Shown piece after piece: positions 3,764 to 29,600 of a DNA stretch of 54,917 nt. The DNA is taken from positions 1 to 54,917 of the forward strand of contig JAWOEA010000008.1 in assembly GCA_046483005.1 (NCBI GenBank). The letters are read 5' to 3'. Position 1 is the first letter of the stretch, and every line of letters begins with the position of its first letter. Source of the DNA: Candidatus Undinarchaeales archaeon (GTDB lineage Archaea > Undinarchaeota > Undinarchaeia > Undinarchaeales > JALTGF01). A program made the translations under genes and the position numbers. The notes below the pieces were generated by a model that saw only the letters and a program-made list of their open reading frames with translations, searched no databases and was not told where the DNA came from.

Positions 3764-4045
3764 ATGGGTATTAAACAGGAAATAGAAAACCACCTTAAAT
3801 ACAAATTTTCTATAGGAGACCGGACTATAGAGAAACTTGCAGAGCTGTATAAAAGAGATAAGGAATATGTTAAAACTTTTTTGAAACTTGCTGAAAAATT
3901 AAGATATGGAGATGAGAAAAAAAGAAGACATATTAATGAAAAGATGAAAAAGAAATCAGCAGGTAAAAGGCACATAATTAAAATTAAAAAACCAAGCGGC
4001 AAAACTGAAAAATACAAAAGATATCAAATTAGAATCAGTTATTAA
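3764..4045 (+). CDS. Hypothetical small basic protein
   Basis: Starts 2 nt after the stop of the preceding ORF. Lys/Arg-rich, no recognised motif. Its 3' end overlaps the convergent rnj by 11 nt. Confidence 0.35.
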   Translation: MGIKQEIENHLKYKFSIGDRTIEKLAELYKRDKEYVKTFLKLAEKLRYGDEKKRRHINEKMKKKSAGKRHIIKIKKPSGKTEKYKRYQIRISY

Positions 4046-5378
4046 AAATCTTTTTCTGTCCGTTTCTTAATAGATGTATATTATCCCCGAGCTTGTAATT
4101 TTCGCCGGTATTTTGATTATATTCTTCAGAAGCTAAATCAGCATAAGCAGCAAGTTTTTGGATGTCGCCGTGACAGGGAATTAAATTTTTAGGATTCAAC
4201 CTTTTAATTAAATCTCTGTGGTCTTCTCTGTCAGCATGTCCTGAAACATGAACATCTCTGAAAACTCTTCCACCCTGTGAAATTATGTTTTCTTCAAGTT
4301 TATGCCTGTTTTGTATGTTTATTGGAGTAGGAATTGTTCTGCATGAGAAAATAACCTGATCTTCTCTTTCTATTTTATAAGAATAATCTCCATTGACAAT
4401 TCTGGAAAGAATTGCTCTGGGCTCGCCCTGTCCTCCTGTAACTACAATTAAATGGTCCTGTTTATTTTTTGCAGCTTTTTTGAAAACCTTTTTCATTGCT
4501 TTTTGTCTTCCCATTACATCTAAATTAGGGAATTTTTTGATTCCAACAGCTTCTGCAACTTTGATATATTTTGCAAGAGACCGCCCGCAGAAAGAAACTT
4601 TCCTGTCCAGTTTTTTAGCTGCCTCCTGAATTGAATTTAATCTTTCAATATGAGATGAAAAACTTGTTACTAAAATTCCATTAGTATCATTAATAGTAGT
4701 TGTAAGTGTATCTTTAAGCATCTCTCTTGCAATCACTTCACCGGGGGTTTTATTGTATTCTTCTGAACCTACCGATTCAACAATTGCAACCTCAACTCCT
4801 TCTTTGCCAAGTTTCTTCATTCTTTTATAGTCAGGAGGTTTTGTGAGAGCCTGACTGTTGTCAAATTTGAAATCAGAAGCATAATAAACAATTCCTTCCG
4901 GTGTATGCAGAGCAGTATGAACTGTTTGGGGAGTTGAATGAGTTAAATGAACAAATTCAACTTCTGTTTTTCCTACATCTACTTTCTCTCCGGCTTCCAT
5001 AGTAACTGTATTAATTCTGTTGAATTTTTTATGAGGCATTGAATTTCTTAAAAATTCCATTGTAAATGGAGTTCCTATAACCGGGGCATCGTAGCGTTTT
5101 GCCATATATTCAACAGCTCCGCAGTGGTCTAAATGAGCGTGAGAAATTACAATTGCTTTAACATTGTCCTTCATTTTTTGAATTGGTTTATCGTCGGGAA
5201 GAACGCCTTCATTTGTTAAATTTGGTTCCTCTGGTTTCAGGCCTTTTTCCTCAAGAGCCATAAGAGGATCCAAATGAATGCCCATGTCAAGAAGAATTAT
5301 TTCATCATCTACCTTGACTGCAGTCATATTCTTTCCGACTTCTTCATATCCGCCTAGTGAGTAAATTTCTATTGTCAT
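4035..5378 (-). CDS. rnj: Archaeal RNase J (metallo-beta-lactamase / beta-CASP ribonuclease)
   Basis: MBL motif 'ISHAHLDHCGA', beta-CASP-type C-terminal motifs ('VHVSGHADRED', 'PCHGD'). The 447-aa length without KH domains fits aRNase J. Confidence 0.85.
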   Translation of the reverse strand: MTIEIYSLGGYEEVGKNMTAVKVDDEIILLDMGIHLDPLMALEEKGLKPEEPNLTNEGVLPDDKPIQKMKDNVKAIVISHAHLDHCGAVEYMAKRYDAPVIGTPFTMEFLRNSMPHKKFNRINTVTMEAGEKVDVGKTEVEFVHLTHSTPQTVHTALHTPEGIVYYASDFKFDNSQALTKPPDYKRMKKLGKEGVEVAIVESVGSEEYNKTPGEVIAREMLKDTLTTTINDTNGILVTSFSSHIERLNSIQEAAKKLDRKVSFCGRSLAKYIKVAEAVGIKKFPNLDVMGRQKAMKKVFKKAAKNKQDHLIVVTGGQGEPRAILSRIVNGDYSYKIEREDQVIFSCRTIPTPINIQNRHKLEENIISQGGRVFRDVHVSGHADREDHRDLIKRLNPKNLIPCHGDIQKLAAYADLASEEYNQNTGENYKLGDNIHLLRNGQKKIFNN

Positions 5379-5486
5379 TTTGTTTCGTTTCTGCGCGTAG
5401 CGCAGGTTTTTTGATCAAACTTTTTTTCGAAAAAAGTTTGTCCGGGTTCTTCATATCCGCCTAGTGAGTAAATTTCTATTGTCATT
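5340..5486 (-). repeat. Composite element E1: perfect 40-bp direct repeats (5340-5379, 5447-5486) flanking a 67-bp two-hairpin insert (5380-5446). Candidate micro mobile element / engineered leader
   Basis: Both copies read 'ttcttcatatccgcctagtgagtaaatttctattgtcatt' and cover position -1 to codon 13 of rnj. The insert has the GC hairpin ctgcgc-gta-gcgcag (5391-5405), the core TTTTGATCAAACTTTT (5409-5424) and the hairpin caaactttt...aaaagtttg (5416-5440). Confidence 0.9.
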
Positions 5487-5537
5487 GTTTGTATTTTTAT
5501 TATTGATTTGAATACTTGTTTTTTTGCGTATATAAAT

Positions 5538-8876: not shown

Positions 8877-9518
8877 TTGGACGCCAAAAAAATAGACGAA
8901 AATTTAAAGAAATATTTGAAAGGAACAACTACAGTCGGAATAGTATGCGACGAAGGAGTAGTCGTGGCCAGCGACAGCAGAGCTACTATGGGCTTCATGA
9001 TTTCTGACAAAGAAGCAAGAAAAATATACAAGATTAATGACAAACTTGCAATGACAACTGCAGGTATGGTCGGAGACAATCAAACATTAGTCAGGATAAT
9101 GAGAGCTCAGTCAAATCTTCAGAAAATGGAAGGAGACGGACTTTCAGTAAAAATGGCTGCAACTCTTCTTGCAAACATATTAAATCAGCAGAGATACTTC
9201 CCGTTTTTGGCTCAGGTTATTATCGGAGGACATGACAAAAAGGGAGGCCATGTATTTGAATTAGATCCTGTAGGCGGAATTTCTGAGAAAAATGTCGCAT
9301 CAACAGGTTCAGGATCACCGGTTGCATATGGTGTTCTTGAAAGGGAATATAAAGAAGGAATAAGCATTGAAGAAGGAAAGAAAATGGCCGCACATGCAAT
9401 TAATTCAGCTCTTGAAAGGGATGCTGCAACTGGAAACAATGTCAGAATTGTAGTTATTGATAAAGACGGATACAAAGAAGTTGAAGAAAAAGAAATTAAG
9501 AAACTTCTAAGTGAATAA
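8877..9518 (+). CDS. psmB: Proteasome beta subunit (start uncertain: TTG 8877, GTG 8868 or GTG 8772)
   Basis: Propeptide followed by active-site 'G|TTTVGI'. TATA-like 'ctttataaa' (~8806) and SD-like 'tgaggtg' (8864-8870) favour the internal start. The track ORF begins at GTG 8772. Confidence 0.85.
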   Translation: MDAKKIDENLKKYLKGTTTVGIVCDEGVVVASDSRATMGFMISDKEARKIYKINDKLAMTTAGMVGDNQTLVRIMRAQSNLQKMEGDGLSVKMAATLLANILNQQRYFPFLAQVIIGGHDKKGGHVFELDPVGGISEKNVASTGSGSPVAYGVLEREYKEGISIEEGKKMAAHAINSALERDAATGNNVRIVVIDKDGYKEVEEKEIKKLLSE

Positions 9519-15555: not shown

Positions 15556-16413
15556 TTACTCTTCCTCCTTTACTTTCGTTGGTTTAAGCTTCTTCTTTTT
15601 CTTTGACTTCTTGCTCTTTTTTGATTTTTTAGACTTCTTTTTCTTTTTAGGTTTGGATTTCTTCTTTGATTTTTTCTCTTCTTTTTTCTCTGCGCCTTTC
15701 TTTTTTGTTTTCTTTTTCTTTCCTTTCTTTTTAAGCGCTTTTTCCATTTCTTTGTCAAGGAAGTCCTCAACCTTTTCAGTAAGTCCGGAAGTATGGGCTT
15801 CTTTTTCAATTAACCTGACAGCTCTTGTTGCTACTGTCGGATAATCTCCTTTGAGCCAGACGAATCCGTTTTGTCCGACAATGATTTTACAGCCGGTCTT
15901 CGACTTTATCATCTGAACCATCGTTCCTTTTCTTCCGATTACTCTCGGAACCCTTGCAGGATTTATTTCTATTAAACGGCCGTCTTTTAGCTTGTGAAGT
16001 CCTCTTTCTTTCATTGTCAATCCGACAACTGTCGCTTTTGAAACATCTAATACTTTCGCAAGGACAGTGTCTCCAACGCCGTAAATTTTTGAAAGGTCTT
16101 CGTCTCTTTCAACATATCTCTCTGTTGCATTTGATATATTCATATTTGCTGAGTATGCTGAATTCAAGTCTACAGACCATCTCGAAAAAGAAATATCCGT
16201 AACGACGCCTATCACAAGGTCGTTTTCTTTAGGCATATATCTCCCATTTAACGGGATTACCTTTATAAAATTCTTTTTCGCATCTACAAGACCCATTACA
16301 TTTGCATAGGCCTTTTCGCTTTTCTTAAATGCTCCTTCTCCGAGCAAACAATCTCCCTCGGCCAATAATTCGCCGGGGACTACTATTTCTCTATTTTTTA
16401 CTTTTAATTTCAT
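15556..16413 (-). CDS. rrp4: Exosome complex RNA-binding subunit Rrp4 (S1 + KH) with ~58-aa poly-Lys tail
   Basis: S1 ('GDLVIGVVTDISFSRWSVDL') and KH ('VIGRKGTMVQMIK..TGCKIIVGQNG') regions, then K/S-rich low-complexity tail. Confidence 0.85.
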   Translation of the reverse strand: MKLKVKNREIVVPGELLAEGDCLLGEGAFKKSEKAYANVMGLVDAKKNFIKVIPLNGRYMPKENDLVIGVVTDISFSRWSVDLNSAYSANMNISNATERYVERDEDLSKIYGVGDTVLAKVLDVSKATVVGLTMKERGLHKLKDGRLIEINPARVPRVIGRKGTMVQMIKSKTGCKIIVGQNGFVWLKGDYPTVATRAVRLIEKEAHTSGLTEKVEDFLDKEMEKALKKKGKKKKTKKKGAEKKEEKKSKKKSKPKKKKKSKKSKKSKKSKKKKKLKPTKVKEEE

Positions 16414-18110: not shown

Positions 18111-18452
18111 TTAATTAAAATGCTTCTTTTTCAGCTTCTTAATGGTTCCTGAAACGCCTAAAGTAGTTACTGACGCCTTCTTTTTGTTGATTGAAGTTAT
18201 TGCCGTCAATGCCCCGAGGACTTCTGTTAGGGCTTTATTTGAACATCTGAGAATTCCCTTTTTCTTTTCTTTATTGTAATCAATGAGCCAGACATTCGTT
18301 TCAGAGGCGCCGGCTTCGCCGAAAAGCTGGAGAATTGAAGAAGTTATAGTATGTATAATGTTATTTTTTGAAGGTTTTGCTTCTGAAAATACAGAAAAGG
18401 CTATATACCTCCATGTTTCCTTCTGTGTTGCCCTGACTTTGAATTTTACCAT
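18111..18452 (-). CDS. rnp2: RNase P protein component 2 (Pop5)
   Basis: 'WRYIAFSV', 'GILRC', C-terminal 'GVSGTIKKLKKK' are Pop5-like. Adjacent to rpp30. Confidence 0.7.
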   Translation of the reverse strand: MVKFKVRATQKETWRYIAFSVFSEAKPSKNNIIHTITSSILQLFGEAGASETNVWLIDYNKEKKKGILRCSNKALTEVLGALTAITSINKKKASVTTLGVSGTIKKLKKKHFN

Positions 18453-18569
18453 TGTTATAGCATTGCATAGATTGGGCCGAAGGCCGCCTTTTGATCAAAC
18501 TTTTGCGCGAAGCGGAAAAGTTTGCGACACGTTTCCTTCTGTGTTGCCCTGACTTTGAATTTTACCATT
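18415..18569 (-). repeat. Composite element E2: perfect 39-bp direct repeats (18415-18453, 18531-18569) flanking a 77-bp two-hairpin insert (18454-18530). Same family as E1
   Basis: Both copies read 'gtttccttctgtgttgccctgactttgaattttaccatt' and cover position -1 to codon 13 of pop5. The insert has the GC hairpin ggcc-gaa-ggcc (18475-18485), the identical core TTTTGATCAAACTTTT (18489-18504) and the hairpin caaactttt...aaaagtttg (18496-18524). Confidence 0.9.
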
Positions 18570-18572
18570 TAA

Positions 18573-19244
18573 TTATATTTTTTTCACTCCTTTTCCAACT
18601 GACTTTCTGCCTTTCCTTTTTCTATTTCTTTCAACTATTTTTTTAGGCGTCTTTAAAACTGCTTTTTTAGCTTCATCCGGTTTGAACCCGATAGATTCTG
18701 CGAAAGCAACAAGCTGTTTTGGGCTCCTCATTCCATACATATCTGAAGCTCCGGAAGTAAATATTAAAGGAGTGTTGTATTTTCTTGCCATCCTCAAATC
18801 AAACTTTATTTTTGAAATTAAATTCGCTCTTTTCATTCCATATGTTGAAAGAATATCTTTTAAATTGATTTCAAGAGCTATATTATTATCAGCGCAGTCT
18901 CTCGCAGCACTTTGATCTACAAAAGCATGTGAAATTATATCTACTCCCTTCATTTCAGGAGCGGCCCGCATTGCCCGATCATCTCTTGAACTTACAAAAA
19001 CAATATCAACCTGGTTTCTGACTTTGTCCAGCTGAGTTTTTATCTTTCCTTTTGTTTTCTTTGTTATTTCAACTGCTGAGATTAAGTCTATATTTGAATA
19101 TTCTTTTTCAAACTTTTCTTTTGCTTTTTCATACCTGCTCTTATTAAAATTATTTTTAAAAACAATACCCAGTCCTTTAACTCCTAAATTAGCTAAACCA
19201 TTTAATTCTCCATTTAAGACTGCTGTATTATGTAAATCGTACAT
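18573..19244 (-). CDS. rnp3: RNase P protein component 3 (Rpp30)
   Basis: 223 aa, N-terminal 'MYDLH'. TIM-barrel-type pattern and superoperon position. Confidence 0.75.
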   Translation of the reverse strand: MYDLHNTAVLNGELNGLANLGVKGLGIVFKNNFNKSRYEKAKEKFEKEYSNIDLISAVEITKKTKGKIKTQLDKVRNQVDIVFVSSRDDRAMRAAPEMKGVDIISHAFVDQSAARDCADNNIALEINLKDILSTYGMKRANLISKIKFDLRMARKYNTPLIFTSGASDMYGMRSPKQLVAFAESIGFKPDEAKKAVLKTPKKIVERNRKRKGRKSVGKGVKKI

Positions 19245-26640: not shown

Positions 26641-29600
26641 TTAATCGTGATTATTCATTTCTTTCTGTCTTTTCTTTCTTAGGTTTTCTTCTTTTTTCTT
26701 CTTACGGGCTCTTTTCTTTTTAGCTTTCTTTTCGGCTCTTTTCTTTTTGAATTTCTTGAACCATGATTCTTTATTTTTAGTTTTCTTTGCTTTCTTCTTT
26801 GCTTTTTTATCTGATTTCTTTTGCTGTTTCTTTTCTTTCTTTTTCTCTACTTTTTGTTTCTTCCGCTGTTTCTTTCTCGCTTCTTTTTCTGATTTCTTTT
26901 CTGCCTTTTCTTTTTTCCAGTCTTTAAGTTTGCTGGATAAATTTTTAAATGGATTTTGTTTCTTTTCCTTGGATTTTCTCTGGATTTGGAGTCTTGATTT
27001 TCCTATTTTGGGTTTTTTCTTTCTGAACTTGAGTTTGTTTCTTAACCAGCCTCTTTCTTTGATTGCTTTGCCTGCTTCCTGGACTGCGAGTTCTTCTTCA
27101 ACTTCTGATAATCTCTTTCTTAAAGTGTTGATTCTATGCTTGTAGGCTCTTGTTTCGATTTTGTTTTCTTTCAGATATGCATTCTGGGTTTCTTTGATTA
27201 ACTGCATCAGTCTCTTTCTTTCAATTTCTGCTCTGTTTTCTGCCTTGAACAGGCTCTTATGAGCAATTCTTTCTGATTCGTAGGCAATTGATTTTTGTAC
27301 TGCTCCGGCCAGCTGTTCTTCATACTGGTTCATTGATGTTTTATAGTCGTTCATGCTCATTGTTTTTCTTTTGAACGTTTCTTTTTGGACTTCCTGCATT
27401 AAGCCTACTATTGTTTTTTGGTCTTCTCTTAAAGTGTCCAGTTTATGGTCTATGTACATCAGTTTTCCTTTCCAGTAGATTCCGAAGGCGGTAATTGATG
27501 CCAGAATTGAACCTAGAAGGACCTGTTTCCAGTTGATTAGAATGAATCTGAATAAATTGAATTCGCCTTTTGTTTCAACTACAAACAAATATTCTGCTTC
27601 TTCAATTCTTTCTAAAGCTGAATTGTAGTCTCCTCGTAGGAATGCTGCTTTTGCCAGGTTTAGTGTTTTTTCCGTTCTTGGAGTATTTACTCCTTCGTAG
27701 CTTGCTTGTTCTATTTTGTCTTCAAGTTCAGCTATTTTATCTTCTGAAGTGAAGGCTGCATCTCGGAATGCTTTTGCCTGTTCGTATTTTGCTTGGACTG
27801 CATCGTAATCGTGTTCTTCCATTAATGCTTTTGCTTCTTCTAATAATTCGGGCATGTCCTTGATTTTGAAGCCGCCTTCCTGCATTTCAGATATACTTTC
27901 GTTTAATCTTTCAATTGATATTTCAGCTTCATCTTCGCTTACGGTATGTATGAAAAGAGTGATATTTCTGTCTTCATCCATGTTGGTTGCAAGTCCGGGG
28001 ACATACGCCGTTCCTTTTATATTTAGGACTAAATCATGCTTTCCTGCTGTAAAGTATTCAGGAGCAGTAATGTAAATGAAGAAGCTTTCGCTTTCATTTA
28101 CTCCTATATGTTTGACTTCAGCAGGTTCAACTCGTAAGTATTGAGCTAAGAAGCCGGATACGTTTAGGGTTGTGTTTTTTAGTGGAGCGTAAGTGAATGG
28201 ATTTTCTACTTTCATTCTGAAGAAATTATCTTCTCCTCTTACAATGTCATACATTTCCTCCGTCTGGAAGACTTTCTGCCTTTCAGATTCTCCGAGACCT
28301 CCGCCTCCTCCTCCGCCGGATCCGGTTCCTCCCGTTGTCTCTTCAATTACAGTTTCTCCGGTTACAATATCAGTAGTTAAAGTTACATTTTTTGTTGAAC
28401 AGTTTTCACATCCTGCCACTAAATAATAAGTTACAGTATCTTCAGTTGCAGTGCTTGATACTGAAATAGTTATATTATTCCAGCTTATCTGGTCTACAGA
28501 CATAGAACCAATTGAAGTATCATTTAAATTTCCGCTTGTTAAACTGAATTCGCTGGGTAAATCCCAGTACAGCCAGGAACCGGTTGATGATTCGTTTCCG
28601 CTGTTTTTAACTGAGCCGTTTAGCAGTATACCGGTGTCTCCGGGGCTTACTGATAGAGGTGTTTCATAGTCTTGTATATACATGTAAGGTCCGCCTGCAG
28701 ATAAAATTGCTAATGCGCTTGATGATAAACTCGGCGTTGTTGTTGAATTTGCAGTTACTGTAAAGGATATATTAAACTGTATATCCGCATTAATTGGTTT
28801 GCCCCAGATTTCAATTACCCTTGAATTTCCGGCAGATAAATTGAATGAAGAATTATAACTCATTGTAATCTGCTGGGTCGGGGCGTCGTCTGAAATTGAA
28901 AACGCAAGCGTCCTGTCTCCGGTATTATTAATTGTTAAATTTCCAATTGAAGTGTTTTCGTCCTGTATTATAGTTACATCGCCGAAACTATTCGGGCTTA
29001 AAGTCCAGTTGTATTCCCAGGCAACTTCAATTGTCGTATTGCTTGAAGTATTTGAATTGCTTTCATTGTCTTCGGCATAAACTTTGTAGGTCCAGTTGTT
29101 TGCCTGATAAGGGTCAAGGGCGTAGTAATAGGAAGCCCAGTTGCTTCCGTTGTCATATTTAGTCATCGAGAAGTTGGACCAGGTGTCTCCTTCCTGTTTA
29201 TACACCAAATTAACAGTAGATAAAGTGCTGTACTCTGTTAAATTTGCAGTTACATTTACTTCAGTTCCGGGGTCTAAATTATCCGCGCCGGTTGGCGTAT
29301 GAGAAATTGAAGTGAATACAGGAGGAGTTGCGTCGGCAATATTCGTGCTGTTCTGGCTTGAAACTGAATTTGCGGCCAGGTCGTAGGCAGTCATATTGCA
29401 GGTCAAGTTTCCTGCTCCTGCGTCTCCGGCGTAAATACTTAAGTTCGCCCATGTACTTGATGCACCTACCTGTCTGGTTGTCTCATTATTTAAACCGCTG
29501 CTGTTTATTGTTATTAAAACATAATCCAGCTCTACATCATCTGAAAAGTTGGCTGAACAGGTTACATACTCAGTGTCAGTTACACTGCTGTCGTTGAAAG

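Follow-up and report, generated by a model that had tools for sequence, protein, structure and literature searches.

Duplicated gene starts around small hairpin inserts at rnj and pop5 of an Undinarchaeales archaeon, and how the two genes may stay translated

Two genes with a second start codon

The stretch of DNA analyzed here (the window: 54,917 nucleotides (nt) of contig JAWOEA010000008.1, Candidatus Undinarchaeales archaeon assembly GCA_046483005.1) carries, on its minus strand, the genes for RNase J (rnj) and for RNase P protein component 2 (pop5), each preceded by a second copy of its own beginning and by a small insert that separates the two copies. We found that both events, referred to here as E1 (rnj) and E2 (pop5), consist of an insertion and a duplication of the gene's first 39–40 nt, start codon included (Table 1). 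The direct repeats are perfect and begin 1 nt before the ATG in both cases, measuring 40 nt with a period of 107 in E1 and 39 nt with a period of 116 in E2. Both inserts are built on a common plan (6-nt filler, AT-rich hairpin CAAACTTTT-loop-AAAAGTTTG, linker ATCAAAA, short GC hairpin, tail): in E1, the filler CCCGGA is followed by hairpin 1 (5440-5416, CAAACTTTT..AAAAGTTTG), the linker ATCAAAAAA, the GC-rich hairpin 2 (5405-5391) and an A-rich tail, and in E2, the filler GTGTCG is followed by hairpin 1 (18524-18496), the linker ATCAAAA, hairpin 2 (18485-18475) and a 21-nt tail ending in TATAACA. They share a 22-nt core, AAACTTTT..AAAAGTTTGATCAA, at 5409-5440 and 18489-18524. E1 folds at -18.5 kcal/mol (z = -4.33 vs. 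shuffles), and its hairpin 1 contains a T6 run; for E2, the fold is no more stable than in shuffles (z = -0.83), and its longest T run is T4. We also considered hairpin 2 as a UUCG tetraloop, but a strict test returned none, the loops being C-TTC-G triloops.

In both cases, the distal ATG opens a decoy open reading frame (ORF) that runs through the insert to the authentic start. An earlier, sequence-only reading of this DNA had placed these frames at 5485->5375 (36 amino acids (aa), with a TGA overlapping the rnj ATG) and 18568->18455 (37 aa, with a TAA 2 nt before the pop5 ATG), and we reproduced both from the ORF listing and the sequence: the E1 TGA (5377-5375) and the rnj ATG (5378-5376) overlap as ATGA, whereas in E2 a CA separates the TAA (18457-18455) from the pop5 ATG (18452-18450). 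That both frames translate the core as K-F-D-Q-K (AAG-TTT-GAT-CAA-AA) is likewise evident in the sequence. Within 20 nt 5′ of either real ATG in the window, we found no Shine-Dalgarno motif (GGAGG/GGTGA-like). The TATA-like box that likely serves rnj lies immediately 3′ of the stop codon of an upstream Memo-family gene.

Table 1. Positions of the genes, repeats, inserts and decoy frames at the two loci (numbering of the whole stretch).
Feature	Position	Strand	Basis
rnj (RNase J, beta-CASP), 447 aa	4035..5378	-	Pfam domains and named homologs
E1 distal direct repeat: A + rnj nt 1-39; decoy ATG 5485-5483; downstream of native TATA box	5447..5486	-	40/40 match to 5340-5379
E1 proximal direct repeat, authentic rnj start	5340..5379	-	runs on into RNase J ORF 4035-5378
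E1 insert, 67 nt	5380..5446	-	missing in ortholog L122; present with 24-nt indel in L121
Decoy ORF E1, 36 aa, MTIEIYSLGGYEEPGQTFFEKKFDQKTCATRRNETK	5375..5485	-	ORF listing; TGA inside rnj ATGA, -4 overlap
TATA-like box ATTTATATA, likely rnj promoter (putative function)	5529..5537	-	sequence reading; 5′ of decoy ATG
pop5 (RNase P protein component 2), 113 aa	18111..18452	-	PF01900 homologs
E2 distal direct repeat: A + pop5 nt 1-38; decoy ATG 18568-18566, 4 nt past rpp30 stop	18531..18569	-	39/39 match to 18415-18453
E2 proximal direct repeat, authentic pop5 start	18415..18453	-	runs on into Pop5 ORF 18111-18452
E2 insert, 77 nt	18454..18530	-	missing in ortholog L124
Decoy ORF E2, 37 aa, MVKFKVRATQKETCRKLFRFAQKFDQKAAFGPIYAML	18455..18568	-	ORF listing; TAA 2 nt before pop5 ATG
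rpp30 (RNase P p30), upstream partner of coupled chain	18573..19244	-	homologs; GGAGTGA Shine-Dalgarno-like motif near 3′ end

Empty and filled sites in relatives

The closest named relatives of the window RNase J belong to Candidatus Undinarchaeales (DPANN; ~54–58%), and the loci compared here encode relatives of it at 85, 82, 72 and 66% identity, with others at 57–59%. In the 82% relative (L122), the rnj site is empty: a TATA box and AAGGAG are followed by a single ATG and then by ...TCACTAGGCGGATATGAAGAAGTTGG. It is also empty in two of the 57–59% relatives, where the TATA box is centered ~27–30 nt before the ATG. The pop5 site is empty in a 76% relative (L124), whose sample also yielded the 85% rnj relative (L121); in L124, the stop of rpp30 and the start of pop5 overlap (gtaTAATGG). 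The pop5 sites of L126 and L256 are likewise empty. Because the orthologous sites are empty (L122 for rnj, L124 for pop5), E1 and E2 are insertions, and the proposal that the decoy frames are by-products of insertion is thereby borne out.

These sites also indicate how the two genes are expressed natively. Counterparts of the rnj TATA-like box occur in L122, L255, L257 and L258, and in three of these (L257, 1160-1203; L258, 1160-1203; L255, 1-38), it is centered 26–30 nt 5′ of the ATG, which suggests a leaderless or nearly leaderless rnj mRNA in these relatives; in the window, the box lies ~46 nt before the decoy ATG, compared with 26–30 nt before the rnj ATG in relatives. In L124, pop5 is natively coupled to its upstream neighbor rpp30 through the TAATG overlap of stop and start. 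Where the window (18569-18575) has TAATTAAATGG between the stop codon of rpp30 and the first ATG of pop5, L124 (1630-1640) has TAATGG. Preceding the second pop5 ATG is TATAACAATGG; its TATAA could be duplicated sequence that has diverged, and the rpp30 stop context may be the source of the E2 decoy stop.

Several relatives carry filled sites. The contig of L121 (85% RNase J identity) starts inside the same element as E1 and differs from it by a 24-nt insertion (3 × 8) in hairpin 2 and by many substitutions; the KFDQK frame has no stop within the 26 codons visible and terminates, as in E1, at ATGA, so hairpin 2 is disrupted while the ORF is kept. In L255 (66%), a 37-nt repeat starts at the ATG with a period of 119, and its 4 mismatches suggest an old event; the insert is unrelated to E1 (5′ hairpin CGGCTGGTGTCAGCCGGCACC), and its 40-aa decoy frame ends in ATGA. 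With a TATA box centered ~26 nt 5′ of its first ATG, L255 would use the decoy as the leaderless start. The 72% relative (L123) carries, at the same rnj position, the second insert family seen in L255, with a repeat that reaches 18 nt upstream and includes GGAGGG; the 182-nt unit is present in at least four copies spanning an N gap, and each 60-aa decoy frame ends in TAATG. This second family (L123, 9466-10040; L255, 36-190) has the 5′ hairpin CGGCTG(G)TG(T/G)TCAGCCGGCACC and a variable remainder and sits in rnj after GATA(T/C)GAAG; we did not find it in the window. Just 5′ of the first rnj copy in L123, a hairpin (CCTGCGCTTCGCGCAGG, 9456-9472) is identical at 15 of 16 positions to hairpin 2 of E1 (CCTGCGCTACGCGCAG, window 5391-5406), and by this likeness part of the E1 insert may be an older rnj leader element of the clade.

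At pop5, a 55% Pop5 relative (L125) carries a variant of the first element before the gene (GACCTTTTGCAAAAGGTCGATCAAAAG, the stem kept by compensatory changes), with a period of 116 and a 12-nt repeat beginning at the ATG; its decoy frame reads the core as KRSIK. An automatic search around the ~280 fetched copies of the core for more ATG-containing repeats returned only L118, a Methanosarcinales-type locus in which the repeat extends ~29 nt upstream, including a TTTAAG at the TATA position, and in which the decoy frame stops early, at GTT-TGA inside the core. Two different insert families have thus entered rnj at position +37..+40, and two independent events have affected pop5. The duplications start at, or 1 nt before, the ATG in E1, E2, L255 and L125 (at or near +1 in tRNAs, see below); a transcription start site as their left boundary fits L255 but does not fit the operonic pop5 or L123. 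Although E1 is common to a relative that differs at 4 of 39 positions, the window repeats are perfectly identical, which would call for independent insertion, gene conversion or selection for identity.

Stop positions and a probable coupling of decoy and gene

Termination-reinitiation in archaea needs -4 (ATGA) or -1 (TAATG) overlaps or very short spacers (PMC6728339, PMC10666635), and in the experiments on coupling, done in Haloferax and Escherichia coli, it is nearly lost at ~20 nt (PMC6728339, PMC10666635). In an overlap test, E1 (-4, ATGA), E2 (TAA plus 2 nt), L121 and L255 (ATGA) and L123 (TAATG) show the geometry of such ORF pairs; moreover, the frame is preserved through the 24-nt indel of L121, and the decoy frame of L255 is intact despite its old repeat. 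We consider it probable that ribosomes translate the decoy, end on or beside the real ATG and reinitiate there. The distal copy would keep the original translation start, that is, the promoter-proximal ATG for rnj and, for pop5, an ATG coupled to the rpp30 stop, 4 nt after it and with GGAGTGA upstream. Ribosomes initiating on the decoy would pass 36–37 codons through the element, melting both hairpins, and would terminate on the real ATG (rnj) or 2 nt before it (pop5) to reinitiate at a start codon that has no Shine-Dalgarno of its own. We propose that these essential genes would stay expressed only with versions of the insert that place the decoy in the -1 frame by their length and contain no stop, and that those versions are the ones seen for this reason. 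As pop5 is natively TAATG-coupled to rpp30 and its real ATG is not preceded by a Shine-Dalgarno, a coupled decoy would preserve the chain. Where the duplication brings its own TATA box (L118), the decoy frame stops early, and where it brings its own Shine-Dalgarno (L123), the real ATG would be independent of coupling; with its own promoter in L118 and its own Shine-Dalgarno in L123, the stop geometry appears to track need.

We compared the frame relation and the stop positions with chance. The ATG-to-ATG periods (107 in E1, 116 in E2, 119 in L255, 182 in L123 and 116 in L125) are all 2 mod 3, five of five measured at rnj and pop5, and this is the sole frame that permits ATGA or TAATG overlaps. 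The sequence-only reading had noted that the insert lengths (67 and 77 nt) differ mod 3, which is correct, and that the frame is shared even so, which does not follow, as the repeats also differ by 1 nt; that E1 and E2 share the frame relation is arithmetic, since 107 and 116 are both 2 mod 3. We then made dinucleotide-preserving shuffles of each insert in a random frame and scored a stop within -8..+1 of the real ATG (P = 0.23 for E1, 0.074 for E2, 0.026 for L123, 0.076 for L255 and 0.15 for L125). For at least four of these five events stopping near the ATG, the same test gives P = 3.7e-4, or P = 0.004–0.007 when L123 and L255 are counted as a single event. The two window copies by themselves are therefore only suggestive of a stop-at-ATG rule, and the support for it appears to come mainly from the relatives. 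The sequence-only reading had asked whether such stops always fall within ~5 nt of the real ATG: this is so in L121, L255 and L123, but not in L125 (20 nt upstream) or L118 (inside the core). On its alternatives of a termination-reinitiation leader or a constraint against abolishing expression, the recurrent geometry, the 2 mod 3 periods and the native coupling of pop5 speak in favor, and it is from these that we infer the coupling itself.

The peptide is another matter. The core can be read through in two frames (KSLIK and KFDQK), the third being closed (AAA-GTT-TGA), so that E1 and E2 would share the KFDQK frame about one time in two by chance; L125 uses the other open frame (KRSIK), L118 uses the closed one, and most of the ~280 copies of the core lie in tRNA introns, tRNA flanks or intergenic DNA, mostly outside ORFs. 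The suggestion that KFDQK is under selection as a peptide finds no support in these three observations. In the coupling model, the decoy peptide would have no function, and judging by the copies compared, KFDQK is not a conserved peptide.

A number of points weigh against coupling. Archaea can start internally without a Shine-Dalgarno, so the real ATG might be used directly. For E1 and E2 alone, the joint probability is weak (P = 0.017), and shuffled inserts of both stay open in the given frame in 50–59% of trials, being easily open because they are poor in TA/TG dinucleotides. L121 shares the event of E1, and L123 and L255 may go back to one ancestral event. The coupling model leaves the exact start of the duplications at the ATG unexplained. 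Finally, the decoy frame of L125 stops 20 nt upstream of the real ATG, and at such a distance, coupling is almost abolished in Haloferax (PMC10666635).

Several of these points would also follow if the decoy frames were accidental, a neutral by-product: the real ATG would then need no decoy, being used by internal initiation that dispenses with a Shine-Dalgarno or on a transcript whose 5′ end lies in or beyond the insert, and the stop positions would be coincidental, helped by the stop-poor composition of the inserts. The open shuffles and the joint P of only 0.017 agree with this, as does the breaking of the rule by L125 and L118; in addition, the TGA of E1, L121 and L255 comes from the gene's own ATGA, so that the stop is free once the frame fits. 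Nevertheless, we regard this explanation as rather unlikely: it does not account for five of five periods at 2 mod 3 or for a frame kept across the 24-nt indel of L121; frames of 40 and 60 codons are open through unrelated inserts (L255, P = 0.076; L123, P = 0.026); the L255 repeat is old and its decoy frame still intact; and by eye, there is no suitably spaced TATA-like box inside either window insert.

A regulatory leader, in which decoy translation would set the folding of the hairpins and thereby termination (at the T-run of hairpin 1) or access to the real ATG, and so make the expression of two RNase genes conditional, seems improbable to us. The T6 run of hairpin 1 and the fold of E1 (z = -4.33) speak for it, and in several lineages insertions have come back to these two RNA-processing genes, which might mean that regulation was selected for. 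E2, however, has neither (z = -0.83, T4 only), hairpin 2 is broken in L121 with the ORF retained, the inserts of L255 and L123 are unrelated, the predicted folds show no alternative pairing that would sequester the real ATG, and the empty sites in close relatives imply that the device is dispensable. Thus, the attenuator-like switch raised by the sequence-only reading is left without specific support, given the E2 fold, the destroyed hairpin 2 of L121 and the inconsistent T-runs.

Most doubtful is removal at the RNA level, by which decoy and element would be cut or spliced out (bulge-helix-bulge splicing, RNase P-like cleavage at the 3′ side of the element, or bypass/frameshift), leaving an mRNA that starts at or fuses to the real ATG: the same core does occur within tRNA introns and directly against mature tRNA 5′/3′ ends, a 5′ end at the real ATG would restore the native mode of an rnj that is near-leaderless in relatives, and, on a reading of the sequence, A AAA ATG A in E1 would permit a -1 slip into the rnj frame, but the repeat copies are identical rather than complementary, the observed frame bias and open decoy frames are not predicted by it, and no bulge-helix-bulge motif across points 107 or 116 nt apart appears in the minimum free energy or centroid folds predicted for either leader.

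A gene-less hairpin element family

Beyond the window, we searched for the core as the pattern AAACTTTT-N(2-20)-AAAAGTTTGATCAA, in a slightly stricter form for metagenomes, and obtained at least 120 genome stretches and at least 120 metagenome stretches (L001-L120 and L135-L254), hence at least 240 loci. Only 8 stretches of a viral contig collection matched, and a virus-borne origin is therefore not indicated. In isolates as well as metagenome-assembled genomes (MAGs), the core is present in archaea (Methanosarcina, Methanobrevibacter, Micrarchaeota, Altiarchaeota, Thermococcus, ANME-1 and others) and in bacteria (Acutalibacter, Oscillospiraceae, Aminicenantes, Cloacimonadota), including the isolates Methanosarcina sp. 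MSH10X1, Methanobrevibacter curvatus DSM 11111 and Acutalibacter sp. 1XD8-33. Its flanks are lineage-specific, some genomes hold many copies, and the stem is kept by compensatory changes (variants GACCTTTT/AAAAGGTC and AAACCTTT/AAAGGTTT).

Archaeal copies of the core show a strong link to tRNA genes, far above the expectation from the genome's tRNA share. Among the matches listed, 19 archaeal element-tRNA pairs lie no more than 200 nt apart, six copies sit inside tRNA introns, and several lie 0–5 nt from mature tRNA 5′/3′ ends. Copies within tRNA introns, including non-canonical T-loop positions, were seen in L007, L010, L031, L038, L098, L117, L158 and L252, and copies at tRNA ends in L030, L035, L042, L047, L084, L147, L193 and L216. 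As at rnj and pop5, other copies of the core have a partial duplicate on one side and the complete sequence on the other; what is duplicated is the tRNA 5′ part (L040, L048, L089, L203), the tRNA 3′ part (L005, L193, L222), seven codons at the end of a protein gene (L162) or a promoter region (L139). For the tRNAs, the junction of the repeats is located in the conserved D-loop or T-loop. Across loci, the flanking repeats measure 12–85 nt and the inserts, all gene-less, 42–145 nt. At L203 (~10650, minus strand), the tRNA 3′ end TTCCCGGCTGGCGTAT is found three times downstream of the tRNA with hairpin-rich inserts that have no core, so gene-end duplications around small hairpins would not be confined to one element family.

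A subfamily from lake metagenomes (L136, L149, L150, L159, L165, L183, L186, L187, L194, L204, L225, L247 and L249) has the form GTAA|CC-hairpin-GATCAAAAGAAA..GAGGAA-N|GTAA, with GTAA on both sides; it lies directly 3′ of stop codons, with GAGGAA 8–10 nt before the next ATG. By this placement, the element would bring a ribosome-binding site, a second way to keep the downstream gene translated. The core also forms tandem arrays with identical 'spacers' (L056, 3920-4300; L234, 13335-13460; L008 and L011). The period is 83 in Methanosarcina sp. MSH10X1; a Methanosarcinales contig has 62 and an Aminicenantes MAG ~133. Such arrays repeat a single unit and are not CRISPR-like.

Searches for a described counterpart or a mobilizing gene returned little. 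In the window, only two tRNAs reached the gathering score of Rfam 15, with no family for the inserts, over which hits at E-values up to 10 stayed at or below 16 bits and were spurious. A literature search by the core sequence on both strands retrieved only an unrelated primer, and the literature on REP-like repeats in Methanosarcina and on transposable elements of the miniature inverted-repeat type (MITEs) in DPANN archaea held nothing matching. BLAST with the bacterial version of the element gave one weak unannotated match among annotated plasmids and none among phages. All-against-all ORF clustering of 120 loci yielded ABC ATPases as the only recurrent neighbor and no transposase, and no Y1 transposase or RAYT gene recurs within up to 8–14 kb around each copy. 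Elsewhere in the window, there are no further copies or degenerate hairpins of the E1/E2 type; it does contain pyrimidine-rich low-complexity stretches on its plus strand (15590-15730 and 26650-26920), probably the lysine/glutamate-rich tails of minus-strand genes, and three 37-nt repeats (31558, 31699 and 31858).

REP/REPIN and IS200/IS605-derived palindromic repeats (PATEs) resemble the family in being short, multi-copy, non-coding hairpins with lineage-specific flanks, compensatory stem changes and occasional tandem clusters, and the GTAA bounds of the lake subfamily (TTAC on the other strand) recall an IS608-type target. Those repeats make no long target duplications, in contrast to the 39–40 nt repeats of E1 and E2, and E1 and E2 have no shared flanking tetranucleotide, GTAA on both sides being found only in the lake subfamily. 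Nor are REP/REPIN and IS200/IS605 repeats known to share a 22-nt core between archaea and bacteria. We rejected a MITE, as the inverted repeat is an internal hairpin followed by an 11–50 nt non-palindromic tail, the repeats (12–85 nt) have no fixed length and no transposase recurs in the 120 loci. A CRISPR-like array or off-target spacer integration was also rejected, given the conserved core shared by the inserts and the identical 'spacers' of the tandem arrays L056 and L234. Integrase att duplications (Sugahara et al. 2012, PMC3293823) and those of casposons likewise place a partial copy of a gene end on one side and the intact gene on the other, with the repeat boundary at the gene boundary and a preference for tRNA genes, but they are kilobases long, encode a recombinase and use one specific att site, whereas many different tRNAs and protein genes are used here; repeat length, insert size and lack of genes rule both readings out. 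For the mechanism of insertion, we can offer only conjectures: recombination via conserved tRNA segments, template switching at microhomologies or attachment to RNA ends. We tentatively raise the possibility, which we hold to be less than even, of an undescribed family of gene-less hairpins in archaea and bacteria that integrates at exact gene ends (start and stop codons, mature tRNA ends, tRNA introns) with 12–85-nt duplications, by a mechanism unlike that of any known transposase and possibly based on recombination or on RNA ends, and with which hosts would cope by decoy-ORF coupling or by an element-borne Shine-Dalgarno.

On the side of translation, the decoys resemble known termination-reinitiation pairs (PMC6728339, PMC10666635) in their co-directed ORFs, -4/-1 overlap or few-nt spacer and downstream start with no Shine-Dalgarno of its own, and rpp30-pop5 of the empty site is itself such a pair; they differ in that the upstream partner is a 36–37 aa decoy, made of a duplicated gene start and a mobile-looking insert, with a coupling that is predicted from the sequence. 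Leader peptides and upstream ORFs (attenuation, eukaryotic reinitiation) are similar in placing a short ORF, whose translation influences the main ORF, before it, but here there is no conserved peptide and there are no regulatory codons, the position rather than the sequence is conserved, and the N-terminus copies the first 13 residues of the main protein. Rickettsia palindromic elements are small palindromic repeats within genes that are likewise tolerated because the reading frame is handled; unlike these, which are translated in frame within the protein, the element here is excluded by the duplicated start and the stop at the real ATG. The combination is thus a variant of known things, termination-reinitiation coupling and small palindromic repeats, in an element family that looks undescribed.

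If the coupling is true, E1 and E2 would be a natural experiment: essential genes would tolerate a selfish or neutral insertion within their first codons through a ribosome relay, and coupling would buffer very compact archaeal genomes against insertions. The element family itself, with a core that crosses domains, its attachment to tRNA ends and introns and its duplications bounded at gene boundaries, poses a mechanistic question as to how such small DNA moves and how new tRNA introns and leaders arise.

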